DNA of 64,000 bases from Escherichia coli (GTDB taxonomy: Bacteria > Pseudomonadota > Gammaproteobacteria > Enterobacterales > Enterobacteriaceae). A program made the position numbers and the translations under genes. How positions within the stretch are numbered: position 1 is the first letter of the stretch; every line of letters begins with the position of its first letter. The stretch is taken from NCBI RefSeq assembly GCF_013122565.1, contig NZ_CP053258.1, one strand, 5' to 3'. Of this stretch, positions 12,280-59,181 are shown piece by piece. The notes under the pieces were generated by a model, which worked only from the letters and a program-made list of their open reading frames with translations, did not search any database and was not told where the DNA came from.

Positions 12280-13911
12280 TTAGTGCTTCACAATGTACAT
12301 ATTCCGGGTGTAGGTATTATCCAGCGGATCTTTGCCGGTATAGCCACCAACCCACGGTTTCACCAGACGCGCATTCACGTAGTAATAAACAGGAACAATG
12401 GCCGAATCCTTATCCAGCTGTTGTTCTGCTTTAGTGTACAGAGCTGTGCGCTGCGCCTCGTCAGTCACTTTCAGCGTTTCCGCCATAATGCTGTCAAAGG
12501 CCGGGCTCTTATAATGCGCGGTATTCATCGAGCTGTTCGACAGCATGGTGTTCAGGAAGGAAGTTGGTTCGTTATAGTCTGCACACCAGCCTGCACGGGC
12601 CACATCAAAAGTGCCCTGATGACGGGTGTCGAGGAACGTTTTCCACTCCTGGTTAACCAGTTTGACGTTTACACCAATGTTTTTCTTCCACAATGAAGAG
12701 GCAGCAATCGCCAGCTTTTTATGCAGATCGGAGGTGTTATACAACAGGTTGATGGTCAACGGTTTGTCTGCGGTATAACCCGCTTCAGCCAGCAGTTTTT
12801 TTGCTTCTTCGTTACGTTTTTCCTGGCTCCAGCCAAACCATTCCGGCTGAGTCAATTTTGCGCCATCAGTATACGGTGGAGTGTAACCATAGGCGGGCAT
12901 GTCGCCCTGTGCTTTCACTTTATTAACAATGATATCGCGGTCCATACCCAGTTTCAGTGCGGTACGCACACGCACATCGTTGAATGGCGGTTTCTGGTTG
13001 TTAATTTCGTAATAGTAAGTGCACAGGTATGGATCAACGTGAACTTCGTCCGGGATCTCTTTTTTCAGCTTCTGGAACAATTCGATCGGCATATTGTTAT
13101 ACGTCATGTCGATTTCACCACTACGGTAGCGGTTGACATCAGTAACTTCAGAAGCAATAGGCAAATAGGTTACCTGGTTAATAACGGTTTTCGCGTTGTT
13201 CCAGTAGGTCGGGCTGCGTTCAAGAACGATTCGTTCGTTTACGACCCAATCTTTTAAGGTATAGGCACCGTTGGTGACGATATTACCAGGCTGGGTCCAT
13301 TTTTCGCCGAATTTCTCGATAGCGGCTTTTGGCACCGGTGAAGTTGATGGGTGAACAAGTAATTTATAGAAGTACGGAACGGGTTCACTTAAGGTGACTT
13401 CTAATGTGTGATCATCAATAGCTTTCACGCCGAGATCGGTAATCGGTTTTTTCCCTTCAAGAATTTCATCAATACCGGCGATATGCCCATATTGCAGATA
13501 ACTGGCATACGGAGAAGCGGTGTTTGGATCAACAGAACGTTGCCAGCTATACACAAAGTCTTGTGCTGTGACTGGCGTGCCATCAGACCATTTCGCATCT
13601 TTACGCAAATGGAAGGTCCAGACTTTCGCGTCTTTATTATCCCAGGATTCAGCGACGCCAGGTGCCGGATGACCGTCAAGGTCGCTGACCAGTAAGCCTT
13701 CAAACAGGTCCCGGCTGATATTAGACTCCGGCACACCTTCAATTTTGTGCGGATCTAATGACTGAACTTCTGAACCATTGTTACGTACCAGCGTTTGTTT
13801 TTCCGCCAGTGTGACGCCTGCGGGTACATCAGCTGCCAGCGCGACATTCCCTGCCATTAGCGCAGCCAGAACGCCAGCTGCTACTAAACTTCTCTTGGTG
13901 ATGTTGGTCAT
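12280..13911 (-). CDS. oppA: Periplasmic oligopeptide-binding protein OppA (543-aa precursor)
   Basis: MTNITKRSLVAAGVLAALMAGNVALA signal peptide then family 5 solute-binding domain; track ORF extends 15 codons upstream. Confidence 0.95.
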   Translation of the reverse strand: MTNITKRSLVAAGVLAALMAGNVALAADVPAGVTLAEKQTLVRNNGSEVQSLDPHKIEGVPESNISRDLFEGLLVSDLDGHPAPGVAESWDNKDAKVWTFHLRKDAKWSDGTPVTAQDFVYSWQRSVDPNTASPYASYLQYGHIAGIDEILEGKKPITDLGVKAIDDHTLEVTLSEPVPYFYKLLVHPSTSPVPKAAIEKFGEKWTQPGNIVTNGAYTLKDWVVNERIVLERSPTYWNNAKTVINQVTYLPIASEVTDVNRYRSGEIDMTYNNMPIELFQKLKKEIPDEVHVDPYLCTYYYEINNQKPPFNDVRVRTALKLGMDRDIIVNKVKAQGDMPAYGYTPPYTDGAKLTQPEWFGWSQEKRNEEAKKLLAEAGYTADKPLTINLLYNTSDLHKKLAIAASSLWKKNIGVNVKLVNQEWKTFLDTRHQGTFDVARAGWCADYNEPTSFLNTMLSNSSMNTAHYKSPAFDSIMAETLKVTDEAQRTALYTKAEQQLDKDSAIVPVYYYVNARLVKPWVGGYTGKDPLDNTYTRNMYIVKH

Positions 13912-14647
13912 TGTTTTTTGGACTCCCTCATTATAATTACTGGTAGTAACCAGCATGTGTAATCCCGGATTGGGACCCTGTACAGGCTCGGAGACTTTCT
14001 GCTGTCAGGTTACTTTATCGTTACGGATTGCTATCACCGACTTTATTTATTCTGGTGATTCAGACGATCACCTTATGTCGATTCGTACTGTGTCTCCCCT
14101 GTCGAGACACATTATTCTTTCGCGACGCTCTTTAATTGTTAATTATTCTCATTACCAATAAAAATCGTCTGGCGGTTGCCCGGAAAGTACCAAATGCGCT
14201 TCTTGCTCGCCAATACATTTTGCAAAATTGTTAAGCAATTCTCTTTTATTGACCGCAGCAGAATCTATAGCTTGCATCCATGTCTTAACAAACATCTTTC
14301 AATTCAATCAAATAGAGATTGGTTAAGCATGTCTATCTTTTCTGATTACAGTTCCCGTAGTGAAATGCACAATAATTTAACAATTGATTATTATTTAGCA
14401 CTTTCCTCTGCCAAAGGCAGTGGAATTACTAATATCATTTCAATTATTCTTCAGCAAGCCCAGGATTATGATGTGGTGAAAATAACATGATGGTGAGGAG
14501 AAGCAGTTAAGGAAATCCTTATAACTAACTGTAATTTGAGAAGAATATTTTTACCTATTCCTTTTGCTTTTGATAACTGCGTAGGAACAAAGTAAAAATA
14601 ATGACGAAGTAAACGGAGCATGGCGGCTCCGTTTCATTTGAAAGGAA

Positions 14648-15295
14648 TTAATTAAGCAGGCCGGGGAAAATCCCCTTAATACCAGTAACGATAAATTCAA
14701 TCCCCAATGCCATCAGCAATAGCCCCATAATACGCGTAATCACGTTGATGCCGGTCTGGCGTAAAACCCGTACCAGCCACGGTGCCATGCGGAACAATCC
14801 CCAGCAACATAAAGCGAACAACGCAATAGCCACAAAGAAACCAAACAGATAGCTAATGCTGTGATAACGCGTACCCCAGACGATGGTAGAACTGATCGCC
14901 CCTGGCCCCGCCATCAACGGCAACGCCAATGGCACCACACCAATGCTTTCACGTACCGCGGTTTCTGATTTTTCTTGCTTGTTCTGTTTATCCTCACCAA
15001 GCTTGCCGCTGATCATCGACATCGCTATTGTCACCACCAGGATGCCACCGGCGATACGGAATGAATCAATTGATATACCAAAAAGTTGTAGAATCGTGTC
15101 GCCGAGAAAAAGCGAGATCCACAAGATAATGGCCACAGACAGGTTGGCTGTAAGGTTAGTTTTGTTTCGCGCTGCCGCTGTCTGATAACTGGTCATGCTG
15201 ATAAAGACGGGAATAATCCCTACCGGGTTGACCAGCGCAAATAACCCGATGAAAAATTTGAAGTAAACGGGAAAATCAAAAAGGGTCTGAATCAC
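14648..15295 (-). CDS. ychE: MarC-family (UPF0056) inner membrane protein YchE
   Basis: 215-aa multi-TM ORF, recognised; synteny. Confidence 0.9.
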   Translation of the reverse strand: MIQTLFDFPVYFKFFIGLFALVNPVGIIPVFISMTSYQTAAARNKTNLTANLSVAIILWISLFLGDTILQLFGISIDSFRIAGGILVVTIAMSMISGKLGEDKQNKQEKSETAVRESIGVVPLALPLMAGPGAISSTIVWGTRYHSISYLFGFFVAIALFALCCWGLFRMAPWLVRVLRQTGINVITRIMGLLLMALGIEFIVTGIKGIFPGLLN

Positions 15296-15772
15296 GGTTA
15301 GCTCCGAAGCAAAAGCCGGATAATGTTAGCCATAAATAAGGTTGAAAAGACGCGCTGACAATACGCCTTTTGACGGCATTTTTCACCTCCTAACTACTTA
15401 AAATTGCTATCATTCGTTATTGTTATCTGGTTGTGCAAAACATGCTAATGTAGCCACCAAATCATACTACAATTTATTAACTGTTAGCTATAATGGCGAA
15501 AAGCGATGCTGAAAGGTGTCAGCTTTGCAAAAATTTGATTTGGATCACGTAATAAGTACCCAGAAGTGAGTAATCTTGCTTACGCCACCAGGAAGTGACG
15601 CATTAGAGATAAATAGCTCTAATGTTTAAACTCTTTTAGTAAATCACAGCGAGTGTGAGCGCGAGTAAGCTTTTGATTTTCATTGGTTAAGCAAATCATC
15701 ACCGCACTGACTATACTCTCGTATTCGAGCAGATGATTTACTAAAAAAGTTTAACATTATCAGGAGAGCATT

Positions 15773-54359: not shown

Positions 54360-55451
54360 ATGGGATTCAAATGCGGTATCGTCGGTTTGCCCAACGTCGG
54401 GAAATCTACCCTGTTCAACGCGCTGACCAAAGCCGGTATTGAAGCGGCCAACTTTCCATTCTGCACCATTGAGCCAAACACAGGCGTCGTACCAATGCCT
54501 GATCCTCGCCTGGATCAACTGGCTGAAATCGTAAAACCGCAACGTACGCTTCCCACGACCATGGAATTTGTCGATATCGCCGGTCTGGTAAAAGGCGCAT
54601 CGAAAGGCGAAGGTCTGGGTAACCAGTTCCTGACTAACATCCGTGAAACCGAAGCGATCGGTCACGTTGTTCGCTGCTTTGAAAATGACAACATCATTCA
54701 CGTTTCCGGCAAAGTTAACCCAGCGGACGATATTGAAGTTATCAACACCGAACTGGCGCTGGCAGACCTCGACACCTGCGAACGTGCGATTCATCGCGTA
54801 CAGAAGAAAGCCAAAGGTGGCGATAAAGACGCGAAAGCTGAGCTGGCGGTACTGGAAAAATGCCTGCCGCAGCTGGAAAACGCAGGTATGCTGCGCGCGC
54901 TGGATTTAAGCGCTGAAGAGAAAGCGGCTATTCGTTACCTGAGCTTCCTGACGCTGAAACCAACAATGTACATCGCCAACGTTAACGAAGACGGTTTTGA
55001 AAACAACCCGTATCTTGACCAGGTGCGTGAAATCGCGGCGAAAGAAGGTTCTGTTGTGGTTCCGGTTTGTGCTGCTGTTGAAGCAGACATTGCCGAACTG
55101 GACGACGAAGAACGTGACGAGTTTATGCAGGAGCTTGGGCTGGAAGAGCCGGGCCTGAACCGTGTGATCCGTGCCGGTTATAAGCTGCTGAACCTGCAAA
55201 CTTACTTCACCGCTGGAGTGAAAGAAGTGCGTGCATGGACAATTCCGGTTGGTGCAACCGCGCCGCAGGCAGCGGGCAAAATCCATACTGATTTTGAAAA
55301 AGGCTTTATCCGTGCACAAACCATCTCGTTTGAAGATTTCATCACTTACAAAGGTGAACAAGGCGCGAAAGAAGCAGGCAAAATGCGTGCAGAAGGTAAA
55401 GATTACATCGTTAAAGATGGCGATGTGATGAACTTCCTTTTCAACGTCTAA
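54360..55451 (+). CDS. ychF: Ribosome-binding ATPase YchF (Obg-family)
   Basis: 363-aa [26 protein letters not shown] with P-loop and C-terminal TGS domain. Confidence 0.97.
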
Positions 55452-55536: not shown

Positions 55537-56295
55537 TTTCACCGAGTCCTAACCATTCTTGTAACATCCTACACTTTTGTGCTTATTGCCTACAGTGACC
55601 ACGAGAATAATTAAAGACATAAGTGTTCAGATGACGGATATCTCATTAGCAGTGGATATAACGTAAGTTTGTGTTCCACTACACATCAGCCCTCTTCACA
55701 GCTGATCAATATTGATCACGCTCCAATATGCTGGCGAGAAAAGGACTTACCTGAAGGGTAATATCCCGCAGATAAAGTCCCCGAATAACGAGATTACGTG
55801 CGATCCTGGCAAGATGAAAATGATAACCAATAGCACGATAATAACGATATGCCAGAAAATCCATTGATCAAAAATGAATATCGATGTTTTTTGCTTTTTC
55901 TTATTAGTAATGCAAAAATGGCGCATATTGTTTTTGTTATGCAGATACATCAAGCGAAAATCCCATAACTAATTAGGATTATTACCAAAAAATATTCACC
56001 AAATTATTTAACCGCTGTTTGTTGTAATGTTTTTGTCATATTCATAGTAACGAATTGGAATAAGTAACGACAACTTAGGGAATAACTCGATCTAAACTCA
56101 CCTTTGTAAGGGGGATGTTAAATATATATTAATTCCTGTGTTCCTGATTTTGCCCGGTAATAGAGAATTATTCTCAGAGAAGCTCATCATGATTGCACCA
56201 TACAAATATCATGATGATAAGAGGATATTATTCATTGACTTAAACAAAATGACAAAATCCATAGACCCATAGCCTGGGTACTATATAGGAGTGGT

Positions 56296-59181
56296 ATGGG
56301 CATCAAACAACACAATGGGAATACCAAAGCCGATCGTCTCGCTGAATTAAAAATCCGTTCGCCCTCAATTCAACTGATAAAATTTGGCGCTATTGGTTTG
56401 AATGCAATTATCTTTTCCCCCCTGCTGATAGCTGCTGATACAGGAAGTCAATATGGCACCAATATTACTATTAATGATGGTGACAGAATTACAGGAGATA
56501 CCGCCGATCCATCAGGAAACCTCTATGGTGTAATGACCCCAGCAGGAAACACGCCTGGCAATATCAACCTGGGTAATGATGTCACCGTCAATGTCAACGA
56601 CGCCTCTGGATATGCAAAAGGAATCATTATTCAGGGCAAAAACAGCTCCCTGACAGCTAACCGACTCACAGTAGATGTTGTTGGTCAAACCTCTGCCATC
56701 GGCATTAATTTAATTGGTGACTATACCCATGCTGACTTAGGCACAGGCAGCACCATTAAGAGTAACGATGACGGCATCATTATTGGGCATAGCTCAACAC
56801 TAACAGCCACTCAATTCACCATTGAAAACTCGAACGGTATAGGCCTAACCATCAATGACTATGGCACCAGTGTCGATCTTGGAAGCGGAAGTAAAATCAA
56901 GACCGATGGAAGTACAGGTGTTTATATCGGTGGTCTCAACGGCAATAACGCCAATGGTGCTGCGCGTTTTACGGCGACAGACCTGACAATCGATGTTCAG
57001 GGCTACAGCGCCATGGGGATAAACGTACAGAAAAACTCTGTTGTCGATCTCGGAACAAACAGTTCCATTAAAACCAGTGGCGATAATGCACACGGCCTCT
57101 GGAGCTTTGGCCAGGTTAGCGCGAATGCACTCACTGTTGATGTAACTGGAGCCGCGGCCAATGGCATCGAAGTTCGTGGTGGTACAACCACTATCGGTGC
57201 AGATAGCCATATTTCTTCCGCGCAGGGCGGTGGTCTCGTAGCCAGTGGTTCAGACGCGACAATCAATTTTTCTGGCACGGCAGCGCAACGAAACAGCATC
57301 TTTTCCGGCGGTTCTTATGGTGCATCAGCCCAGACGGCAACGGCTGTTATCAACATGCAAAATACCGATATTACGGTTGATCGTAATGGCAGTCTGGCGC
57401 TGGGGTTGTGGGCGCTCAGCGGCGGTAGAATAACCGGAGACAGTTTGGCTATCACCGGCGCGGCAGGAGCCAGGGGGATTTATGCCATGACCAACAGCCA
57501 GATCGATCTCACGAGCGATCTGGTCATTGATATGAGTACACCCGACCAGATGGCCATCGCAACGCAACATGACGATGGTTATGCCGCCAGCCGCATCAAC
57601 GCCTCGGGTCGTATGCTTATCAACGGTAGCGTTCTCTCCAAAGGTGGGCTAATCAATCTGGATATGCACCCTGGGTCGGTTTGGACAGGTTCCTCCCTCA
57701 GCGATAATGTCAATGGCGGGAAACTGGACGTTGCAATGAATAACAGCGTCTGGAACGTAACAAGTAATTCTAATCTCGACACGCTGGCGCTGAGCCATTC
57801 AACTGTCGATTTTGCCAGCCACGGGTCAACTGCCGGCACATTTACCACATTAAACGTAGAGAACCTGAGCGGTAACAGTACCTTTATTATGCGTGCTGAT
57901 GTTGTTGGCGAGGGTAATGGCGTTAATAATAAAGGGGATTTATTGAATATCAGCGGGAGTAGTGCTGGTAATCACGTATTGGCTATCCGCAACCAGGGCA
58001 GCGAGGCCACTACGGGAAATGAAGTTCTGACAGTGGTAAAAACCACTGACGGTGCGGCCTCGTTCAGCGCGTCTTCTCAGGTTGAGTTGGGAGGATATCT
58101 GTACGATGTGCGTAAAAATGGCACTAACTGGGAGCTTTACGCTTCCGGGACAATTCCGGAGCCGACTCCAAATCCTGAACCAACGCCGGCTCCCGCTCAG
58201 CCTCCCATAGTCAACCCCGATCCTACGCCTGAACCCGATCCTACGCCTACCCCCACTCCCACACCTAAACCCACCACGACCGCAGATGCTGGCGGCAATT
58301 ATCTCAATGTCGGTTATTTATTGAACTATGTTGAAAACCGTACGCTGATGCAACGGATGGGTGACCTGCGAAATCAGAGTAAAGACGGTAATATCTGGCT
58401 GCGCAGTTATGGGGGAAGCCTGGACTCCTTCGCCAGTGGCAAACTTAGCGGCTTTGACATGGGTTACAGCGGTATCCAGTTTGGTGGGGATAAACGTCTC
58501 TCTGATGTAATGCCGTTGTATGTCGGTCTGTATATTGGCTCAACACATGCATCGCCGGACTATAGCGGAGGCGACGGTACCGCACGTTCAGACTACATGG
58601 GAATGTACGCCAGTTACATGGCACACAACGGTTTTTACAGCGATCTCGTTGTAAAAGCATCGCGCCAGAAAAATAGCTTCCACGTACTGGACAGTCAGAA
58701 CAACGGCGTTAACGCCAACGGCACTGCGAATGGATTGAGCATCTCCCTGGAAGCCGGGCAGAGGTTCAACCTGACCCCTACTGGTTATGGGTTCTATATA
58801 GAGCCGCAAACCCAGCTCACATACAGCCACCAGAATGAGATGGCTATGAAGGCGAGTAATGGTCTCAATATACATCTGAATCACTACGAATCGCTGCTGG
58901 GGCGTGCCAGTATGATACTGGGATATGACATCACCGCAGGCAACAGCCAGCTGAATATGTATGTGAAGACTGGCGCTATCCGCGAGTTTTCAGGGGATAC
59001 AGAATATCTGTTGAACAACTCCCGGGAGAAGTACAGTTTCAAAGGTAATGGCTGGAATAACGGCGTGGGAGTCAGTGCACAGTATAACAAACAGCACACA
59101 TTCTACCTCGAAGCGGATTACACGCAGGGTAACCTCTTTGATCAGAAGCAAGTCAACGGAGGATATCGCTTCAGCTTTTAA
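56296..59181 (+). CDS. ycgV: Type Va autotransporter adhesin (YcgV-like): passenger beta-helix, Pro/Thr linker, C-terminal beta-barrel
   Basis: 961-aa ORF with repetitive G/T/N/S-rich passenger, PEPTPNPEPTP...TPTPTPTPKP linker, and barrel ending in aromatic-terminal GGYRFSF. Confidence 0.9.
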   Translation: MGIKQHNGNTKADRLAELKIRSPSIQLIKFGAIGLNAIIFSPLLIAADTGSQYGTNITINDGDRITGDTADPSGNLYGVMTPAGNTPGNINLGNDVTVNVNDASGYAKGIIIQGKNSSLTANRLTVDVVGQTSAIGINLIGDYTHADLGTGSTIKSNDDGIIIGHSSTLTATQFTIENSNGIGLTINDYGTSVDLGSGSKIKTDGSTGVYIGGLNGNNANGAARFTATDLTIDVQGYSAMGINVQKNSVVDLGTNSSIKTSGDNAHGLWSFGQVSANALTVDVTGAAANGIEVRGGTTTIGADSHISSAQGGGLVASGSDATINFSGTAAQRNSIFSGGSYGASAQTATAVINMQNTDITVDRNGSLALGLWALSGGRITGDSLAITGAAGARGIYAMTNSQIDLTSDLVIDMSTPDQMAIATQHDDGYAASRINASGRMLINGSVLSKGGLINLDMHPGSVWTGSSLSDNVNGGKLDVAMNNSVWNVTSNSNLDTLALSHSTVDFASHGSTAGTFTTLNVENLSGNSTFIMRADVVGEGNGVNNKGDLLNISGSSAGNHVLAIRNQGSEATTGNEVLTVVKTTDGAASFSASSQVELGGYLYDVRKNGTNWELYASGTIPEPTPNPEPTPAPAQPPIVNPDPTPEPDPTPTPTPTPKPTTTADAGGNYLNVGYLLNYVENRTLMQRMGDLRNQSKDGNIWLRSYGGSLDSFASGKLSGFDMGYSGIQFGGDKRLSDVMPLYVGLYIGSTHASPDYSGGDGTARSDYMGMYASYMAHNGFYSDLVVKASRQKNSFHVLDSQNNGVNANGTANGLSISLEAGQRFNLTPTGYGFYIEPQTQLTYSHQNEMAMKASNGLNIHLNHYESLLGRASMILGYDITAGNSQLNMYVKTGAIREFSGDTEYLLNNSREKYSFKGNGWNNGVGVSAQYNKQHTFYLEADYTQGNLFDQKQVNGGYRFSF

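Follow-up and report, generated by a model that had tools for sequence, protein, structure and literature searches.

The AT-rich spacer between ychE and oppA of Escherichia coli, very probably the cis-regulatory region of the oppABCDF operon

Introduction

The 5′ untranslated region (UTR) of oppA is one of the better-studied bacterial leaders: it belongs to the polyamine modulon and is a target of GcvB, MicF and Hfq. In E. coli K-12 it is transcribed from two promoters, P1 (+1) and P2 (+246), and comprises ~510 nt with an RNase E site at +341 (Carrier, Lalaouna & Masse 2023, RNA Biol, PMC9988348; below, Carrier 2023). As related in that paper, the two K-12 starts come from primer extension and dRNA-seq, and Igarashi 1997 (JBC 272:4058) had likewise observed both. 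It has been shown in the same work that the +341 end depends on RNase E, and that MicF protects +372..+392 (+372..+393 in the figures) from lead acetate, more than 100 nt upstream of the AUG. A translational enhancer was defined there by the deletion oppA-delta-399, Hfq gave a footprint and a toeprint at +484..+492, and GcvB was found to bind the oppA ribosome-binding site (RBS) (PMC9988348). A polyamine element is placed ~60 nt 3′ of the MicF site in the account that this paper gives of Igarashi 1997 and Yoshida 1999.

Three further systems offer points of comparison. GcvB targets are described, in the work of Sharma et al. (2007, 2011) as cited in PMC9988348, as C/A-rich elements at the RBS of ABC-transporter mRNAs. 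In Salmonella, the oppABCDF 5′ UTR is the source of OppX, a sponge of MicF (Matera et al. 2022, Mol Cell 82:629, as summarized in PMC9988348 and PMC9825163), with forms OppX-L, OppX-M and OppX-S of 410, 190 and 109 nt according to the first of these summaries. At the level of transcription, PMC10127797 reports that Lrp represses oppA and forms two ChIP peaks at its promoter, both lost with leucine.

The present analysis concerns the corresponding DNA in a 64-kb stretch of an E. coli genome, referred to as the window. Transcription start sites, processing, the action of MicF, Hfq and GcvB, and repression by Lrp are results of K-12 experiments and are carried over to the window by homology. The AT-rich spacer between ychE and oppA is very probably the cis-regulatory region of the oppABCDF operon, made up of the oppA promoters and a long leader.

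Limits and composition of the spacer

Around the gap, oppB, oppA and ychE lie on the minus strand and adhE on the plus strand, and the gene order ychE-oppA-oppB is preserved. YchE is 100% identical to its counterpart in E. coli VE-T9, and residues 1-200 of OppA show 99.5% identity to VE-T9 and 100% to K-12. The ychE gene ends at 14648 and oppA starts at the ATG at 13911 (MTNITKRS...), the start that PGAP also uses in VE-T9; the true gap is therefore 13912..14647, or 736 bp. A preliminary description had begun the spacer at 13957, because it took the longest oppA ORF, which opens at an in-frame ATG at 13956; among the aligned species this ATG is confined to Escherichia. The AT-richness that it had noted is real: 13957..14647 has a GC content of 37.8%, and the window as a whole 49.6%. 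Values this low occur in just 1.3% of 691-bp segments, the region has the second-lowest GC of the window, and the minimum (32%) falls around 14200-14400.

The gap consists of an oppA-proximal leader of ~510 nt and a distal portion of ~226 bp with the ychE terminator and the promoter/operator DNA of P1. The earlier proposal of a long, sRNA-targeted oppA leader thus agrees with the published ~510-nt leader and its regulation by MicF and GcvB, but it does not extend to the distal ~226 bp. Within this portion, 14 nt past the ychE stop codon, lies a terminator-like hairpin (Table 1) with a predicted energy of -13.6 kcal/mol (z = -3.7 against shuffles) and moderate conservation in other genera. It probably terminates ychE.

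Table 1. Features of the ychE-oppA spacer, in window coordinates
Feature	Position	Strand	Basis
ychE intrinsic-terminator-like hairpin (AAACGGAGC-N6-GCUCCGUUU), then U-rich tract	14611..14634	-	fold
Conserved P1 promoter/operator block and near-invariant first ~57 nt of P1 transcript	14368..14487	-	alignment, K-12 numbering
P1, putative hexamers: -35 TTGCTG, 17 nt, -10 TATTAG	14457..14452; 14434..14429	-	hexamers read from sequence
CTAA target of IS5 (IS5U) in K-12 MG1655, +24..+27 of P1 transcript	14395..14398	-	junctions read
Conserved P2 promoter block	14184..14250	-	alignment, Carrier 2023 +246
P2, putative hexamers: -35 TTGGCG, 18 nt including TGg, -10 TACTTT	14213..14208; 14189..14184	-	hexamers read from sequence
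Conserved motif (G/A)AUGAGAAU, ~+272..+280 of leader	14142..14150	-	near-invariant in 74-sequence alignment
Hairpin A (GUGUCUC-GACAGGG-GAGACAC), conserved GACAGGGG loop	14089..14111	-	fold, covariation
RNase E processing site (K-12 +341 = 14082), within invariant AAUCGAC	14077..14084	-	Carrier 2023, primer
Hairpin B (GGUGAU...AUCACC), directly 5′ of MicF site	14054..14072	-	-7.1 kcal/mol
MicF pairing site AAUAAAUAAAGUCGGUGAUAGC, K-12 +372..+393	14030..14051	-	published protection, duplex prediction, alignment
AU-rich translational-enhancer stretch, K-12 +399..+413	14010..14024	-	primer EM5095, K-12 numbering
Hairpins C (14009..13977), D (13976..13962) and E (13953..13940)	13940..14009	-	single-sequence folds; region of reported polyamine-responsive structure
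Hfq distal-face (A-R-N)-like site UAAUUAUAA, K-12 +484..+492	13931..13939	-	published footprint
Translation initiation region: SD GAGGGAG 13929..13923, AUG 13911..13909, predicted GcvB R1 pairing 13921..13897	13897..13929	-	
98-aa ORF (104 aa if read from TTG 14176), antisense to P1 and early leader	14194..14490	+	PGAP 'hypothetical protein' WP_001211516.1; judged non-coding
68-aa ATG ORF, antisense to proximal leader	13955..14161	+	judged non-coding

Correspondence with the K-12 region and conservation across the family

The spacer occupies the same ychE-oppA locus as the K-12 oppA promoter and 5′ UTR, with 97% identity. P1, P2, the RNase E site, the MicF site, the AU-rich enhancer, the Hfq site and the Shine-Dalgarno (SD) sequence all lie at corresponding positions. 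Once the IS5 copy of K-12, which the window lacks, is removed, the two differ over 767 nt by 18 substitutions and one indel, an extra C in K-12 near 14162. The published oligonucleotides EM4528 (+341), EM5064 (P1 end), EM1320 and EM5095 align to the window with 0-2 mismatches. Among the substitutions, a G replaces the T of K-12 at 14429, and at 14030, the last (3′) base of the MicF site, a C replaces T, so that MicF nt 1 would form a G-C pair here and a G-U pair in K-12. At both positions the base in the window is the family consensus. The region is thus an orthologue of the characterized K-12 region and, as such, already known; within the species, 13850..14720 matches 5,423 of 5,426 complete E. 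coli genomes in BLAST at 90-99% identity, the top match reaching 98.4%.

For comparison beyond the species, YchE was used as bait in one genome per GTDB species, yielding 80 loci from ~25 genera of Enterobacteriaceae, 76 of which carry both ychE and oppA. MAFFT alignments included up to 77 sequences (the window and 76 species). The gap measures 664-878 bp (median 764) with 35-45% GC in all 76 species, which indicates that the family inherited a long AT-rich spacer from its common ancestor. In the 71 non-Escherichia species, most of the spacer is only 22-37% identical to the window, whereas islands within it reach 65-92%. These islands are 14487..14368, 14250..14184, the GACAGGGG loop of hairpin A, AAUCGAC, the MicF site, CCUGACAGCAG, and GUAAUUAUAAUGAG together with the SD. 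They coincide with experimentally defined functional elements.

This pattern bears on the view that the spacer has no specific function and stems from horizontal acquisition or the decay of mobile DNA, for instance as an IS scar or as junk silenced by H-NS. Low GC (32-38%), the presence of IS5 and IS1 insertions in the spacer of some E. coli strains, and the essentially unconserved sequence between the blocks could be taken in its favor. However, a spacer of similar length is found in all 76 species of ~25 genera, it contains near-invariant blocks and covarying helices, and it has no repeats or transposase remnants, the IS copies being strain-specific additions. Such an origin is therefore extremely improbable, and the conserved islands are best read as parts of an oppA regulatory region.

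Promoters P1 and P2

The P1 start was placed by means of the Carrier 2023 primers EM4528 and EM5064 and the numbering of that paper, adjusted for the one indel relative to K-12. It falls at ~14421, which gives a P1 leader of 510 nt in the window; the reverse primer of the published P1 fusion ends at 14421, and the "P2-only" construct begins at 14418. The P1 block is 65-92% identical to the window in the 71 non-Escherichia species, compared with 22-37% in its flanks. The last base of the -10 hexamer, at 14429, is G both in the window and in the family consensus and T in K-12 (TATTAT), so P1 strength could differ from that in K-12. P2 would start at ~14176 (K-12 +246), with a 5′ UTR of ~265 nt, and 88-91% of the positions in its block are conserved across genera. 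A generic scan with sigma-70 and terminator consensus patterns returned 4 promoter-like sites against 2.2 ± 1.8 expected, and the published P1 and P2 were not among them. In MG1655, the annotation places IS5U between ychE and oppA, and a 4-bp duplication can be read at its junctions.

The geometry of the two promoters is also constrained. In 70 of 70 species, exactly 58 bp separate the conserved block upstream of P2 from the -10 element. P1 and P2 lie 195-197 bp apart in 58 of 70 species, a spacing maintained over ~110 unconserved nt; in Escherichia the distance is 188 bp. In addition, a near-invariant block of ~45 nt occupies +12..+57 of the P1 transcript (14410..14368, GUGCUAAAUAAUAAnCAAUUGUUAAAUUnUUGUGCA). 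No description of this block or of the fixed P1-P2 spacing was found in the accessible oppA-leader literature. Both features might, tentatively, mark a nucleoprotein complex of fixed geometry in which, for instance, the promoters are bridged by an octamer or hexadecamer of Lrp, or the block might be a 5′-terminal RNA module, perhaps a site for Hfq of the (AAU)n type or the target of another sRNA; this proposal is speculative. With respect to the Lrp-repressed oppA promoter (Kroner 2019; Ziegler & Freddolino 2023, PMC10127797), the two conserved AT-rich blocks match the two ChIP peaks in number, and they most likely carry the Lrp operator sites.

Regulatory sites in the leader

Downstream of P2 lies the conserved (G/A)AUGAGAAU motif, which forms the 5′ arm of a hairpin in many genera, with a 3′ arm that varies by genus; Escherichia has no such pairing. 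The RNase E site was placed with the T7-oppA primer of Carrier 2023, which opens with ATCGACATAAGG and thereby sets 14082 equal to +341.

For sRNA pairing, the micF and gcvB sequences were taken from the K-12 record. When MicF nt 1-26 were matched to a 571-nt leader with RNAduplex, the top site was 14052..14029 at -22.6 kcal/mol, an energy reached by none of 100 shuffles. This best predicted duplex coincides with the published +372..+393, and the site hardly varies among the 74 aligned sequences. The adjacent AU-rich enhancer is weakly conserved in sequence and A-rich in all genera. Further downstream, the Hfq site sits in the (near-)invariant block GUAAUUAUAAUGAG, and the SD is separated from the AUG by an unusual spacer of 11 nt.

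The result for GcvB was of a different kind. Between the SD and codon 5 (CCAAAAAACAAUGACCAACAUCACC; CAACACAAUG in most other genera), GcvB R1 can pair over 25 nt almost without interruption, beginning immediately 3′ of the SD, at -23.1 kcal/mol. The best predicted GcvB site of the leader (-24.1 kcal/mol) lies away from this position and was matched or beaten by 36 of 100 shuffles. Because duplex energies are no better than those of shuffled leaders, the GcvB assignment rests on the published experiments. Folding of whole-sRNA duplexes produced over-extended pairings and was uninformative. Target prediction on the leader, which the preliminary description had proposed as a check, thus recovers the published site for MicF and does not single out the GcvB site.

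Structure of the leader RNA

Structural conservation was assessed in an alignment of 74 sequences covering -250..+20 relative to the AUG. The RNAalifold consensus contains 30 pairs in five helices. In this structure, 94.8% of the alignment cells are paired, compared with 28-50% when the partners are slid by 1-3 columns; 270 cells are changed on both sides, compared with 42-84 after sliding; and the covariation score is 0.369, compared with 0.055-0.105. Changes on both sides occur at 18 of the 30 pairs. The observed paired fraction, number of both-side changes, count of pair types and covariation score were each reached by 0 of 500 shuffles. Covariation across relatives, suggested earlier as a test of this region, therefore comes out clearly in favor of conserved RNA structure.

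Among the individual elements, hairpin A has a predicted energy of -12.2 kcal/mol (z = -4.4) and compensatory changes at all 7 pairs, with 3-28 sequences per pair changed on both sides. Hairpin B shows both-side changes at 4 of 5 pairs. Hairpins C and E covary, as does hairpin D when the alignment is examined by eye. A further helix (helix 2) can be formed between AUCGAC (14082..14077) and GUCGGU inside the MicF site; it is neither backed nor refuted by covariation, because both of its sides are invariant. Folded as a single sequence, the processed leader shows no exceptional stability (z = -1.4), so that the support for structure comes from covariation and not from energy. A scan of 13700..14900 against Rfam 15 at E <= 10 gave chance-level matches only (MicA, mir-399, C0299 and a snoRNA, with 16-20 bits against thresholds of 40-60 and E = 0.3-3.5); for the polyamine-responsive element reported in the literature, Rfam has no model.

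The conservation of these elements also raises the question of whether the region serves mainly to produce a free regulatory RNA, an OppX-like MicF sponge derived from the 5′ UTR. The leader is orthologous to that of Salmonella, for which Carrier 2023 summarizes the OppX species, and the MicF-complementary sequence is identical in the window and in the Salmonella loci L012 and L013; across the family, these loci included, the MicF site, its flanking hairpins and the RNase E site show hardly any variation. In contrast to Salmonella, K-12 yields no detectable stable fragments of the oppA 5′ UTR, and MicF acts there on oppA translation itself, which it activates (PMC9988348). The lack of an Rfam match also speaks against a free RNA, and such an RNA would complement the function of the leader and not replace it. 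A free RNA as the main product is accordingly unlikely, and a leader acting in cis remains the preferred reading.

Open reading frames in the spacer

Two plus-strand ORFs run antisense to the leader and promoters, and the possibility that the spacer encodes a small protein depends on them. The preliminary description had left both uncalled on the grounds of non-ATG starts and missing SD sequences. The first of these grounds was mistaken, since the ORF 13955..14161 starts with ATG and the ORF 14176..14490 contains one in frame at 14194. The second is borne out: GGAAAG, 6 nt upstream of ATG 14194, is the only candidate, and nothing SD-like precedes 13955.

The 98-aa ORF has the stronger claim to be coding, as it is annotated under WP_001211516.1, has an ATG start with this weak GGAAAG upstream, and belongs to E. 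coli protein clusters with hundreds of members. However, a search of 5.8 billion proteins gave homologs in Escherichia and Shigella only, apart from one record under the name Enterobacter hormaechei; many of them are truncated, and Pfam domains are absent from all. None of the 76 other species has a frame free of stops and frameshifts; in the closest of them (L003), whose spacer is 93% identical, a stop already occurs at codon 15. Substitutions are spread evenly over the codon positions (2881/3048/2927); relative to E. coli VE-T9 there are 5 differences (0/3/2 by codon position), of which 3 change an amino acid. In MG1655 the ORF is split by IS5. It is partially conserved at its ends because these are antisense to the two promoter blocks, which are conserved on the opposite strand. 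The 68-aa ORF has an intact, stop-free frame in just 6 of 76 species, with substitutions of 1799/1855/1571 by codon position.

In line with the preliminary description, neither plus-strand ORF is a gene, and a protein-coding role of the spacer is highly improbable. The 98-aa "hypothetical protein" annotated in thousands of E. coli genomes, which overlaps the oppA P1 promoter, is almost certainly spurious. With both ORFs failing the coding tests, and given the published work, the conservation and the covarying helices, the earlier suggestion of regulatory RNA structure in place of coding sequence is upheld.

On the sense strand, an upstream ORF opening at an ATG at ~+14 of the P1 transcript was also considered. 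It is present in many non-Escherichia species with a variable length of 30-57 aa, and it was rejected: the ATG is AGG in Escherichia, and the conservation is without 3-nt periodicity and ends after ~45 nt.

Proposed regulation and significance

By analogy with K-12, whose leader elements probably work in the same way in the source strain, regulation of the operon may be envisaged as follows. Transcription of ychE would end at the hairpin at 14634..14611, and oppABCDF would be driven by the sigma-70 promoters P1 (~14421) and P2 (~14176), both presumably repressed by Lrp. The long transcript would then be trimmed by RNase E at ~14082, leaving a processed leader with, in order, the MicF site, the AU-rich enhancer, three small hairpins, the Hfq (ARN) site, the distant SD and the GcvB site. 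Initiation would be repressed by Hfq bound at 13939..13931 and by GcvB over the RBS and first codons. Pairing of MicF at 14051..14030 is expected to expose the adjacent AU-rich enhancer and thereby to increase translation, and polyamines are reported to loosen the structure around the SD and AUG.

For the family as a whole, the alignment provides independent comparative support for the K-12 model, through an invariant MicF site, covarying hairpins and a fixed promoter spacing. The comparison also draws attention to two small conserved features of the region, the +12..+57 block of the P1 transcript and the P1-P2 spacing.

Conserved elements of the oppA leader

The P1 transcript of oppA carries a near-invariant block close to its 5' end, which includes (AAU)3 and the direct repeat TGTTA-N6-TGTGC. 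The former may resemble an Hfq ARN motif, and the latter a site for ArcA or Lrp. The block also holds a match, TGCACA-17-TATTAT, that looks like a promoter on the plus strand. Further along the leader lies another conserved motif, downstream of P2, which in many genera forms the 5' side of a hairpin with a variable 3' side.

Features of the ychE-oppA spacer and of other parts of the window
Feature	Position	Strand	Remark
Near-invariant block GUGCUAAAUAAUAAnCAAUUGUUAAAUUnUUGUGCA	14368..14410		shortly downstream of P1 start
Promoter-like match	14366..14394	+	inside near-invariant block
IS5 target CTAA	14395..14398		P1 transcript +24..+27
Conserved motif (G/A)AUGAGAAU	14142..14150		~95 nt downstream of P2
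In-frame AUG	13954..13956	-	45 nt upstream of oppA start
WP_001211516.1	14194..14490	+	98-aa hypothetical protein
17-aa ORF MPSKGVLSARLFNLIYG	15326..15379	-	upstream of ychE
Segment of lowest GC (34%)	55811..56501		

In 58 of 70 species (loci L003-L082), 195-197 bp separate the P1 -10 element from the block upstream of P2 (window 14255..14434); in Escherichia the distance is 188 bp. About 110 nt of this interval show no conservation, despite the near-constant distance. The remaining spacer segments differ in length by 10-40 bp among the same loci.

Insertion sequences in the spacer

The most conserved block of the spacer contains the site of the IS5 (IS5U) insertion of K-12 MG1655 (2500..3694 in L002, the locus of this strain), and this element cuts P1 off from oppA. 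An IS1A is present in the spacer of E. coli strain J2 (BLAST match H4). Among 5,424 E. coli records, 87 have no individual match place that spans 80% or more of the query, the 871 bp of window 13850..14720.

Potential start codons

In most non-Escherichia species (L008-L082), AGAUGAAUGUGCUAA occurs at about +14 of the P1 transcript (window ~14408). Its AUG opens sense ORFs of 30-57 aa that vary in length and are overlapped by a mini-ORF, AUG-UGC-UAA. These AUGs are replaced by AGG and AAG in most Escherichia sequences, including the window.

Closer to oppA, initiation at the in-frame AUG would extend OppA by 15 residues. This codon, placed at the foot of hairpin E (13953..13940), is confined to Escherichia, which carries ACACAUGCUGG, whereas other genera have AACAGGCUGG. 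A second, out-of-frame start, producing a 7-aa ORF inside oppA near its 5' end, has been described (PMC9825163, citing Ribo-RET data); it would fall within window ~13750..13911, minus strand.

Annotation of the region

Elsewhere in the window, the 17-aa ORF is the counterpart of YchT, a small protein in the K-12 annotation (b4771). The segment of lowest GC is flanked by a ychF-like GTPase gene (54360..55451) and an autotransporter-like ORF of 961 aa (56296..59181).

Antisense to oppA P1, RefSeq/PGAP calls WP_001211516.1 in many E. coli genomes, including 17 of the 20 best BLAST matches. This annotation has the look of a false-positive gene call, made systematically across the oppA P1 promoter.
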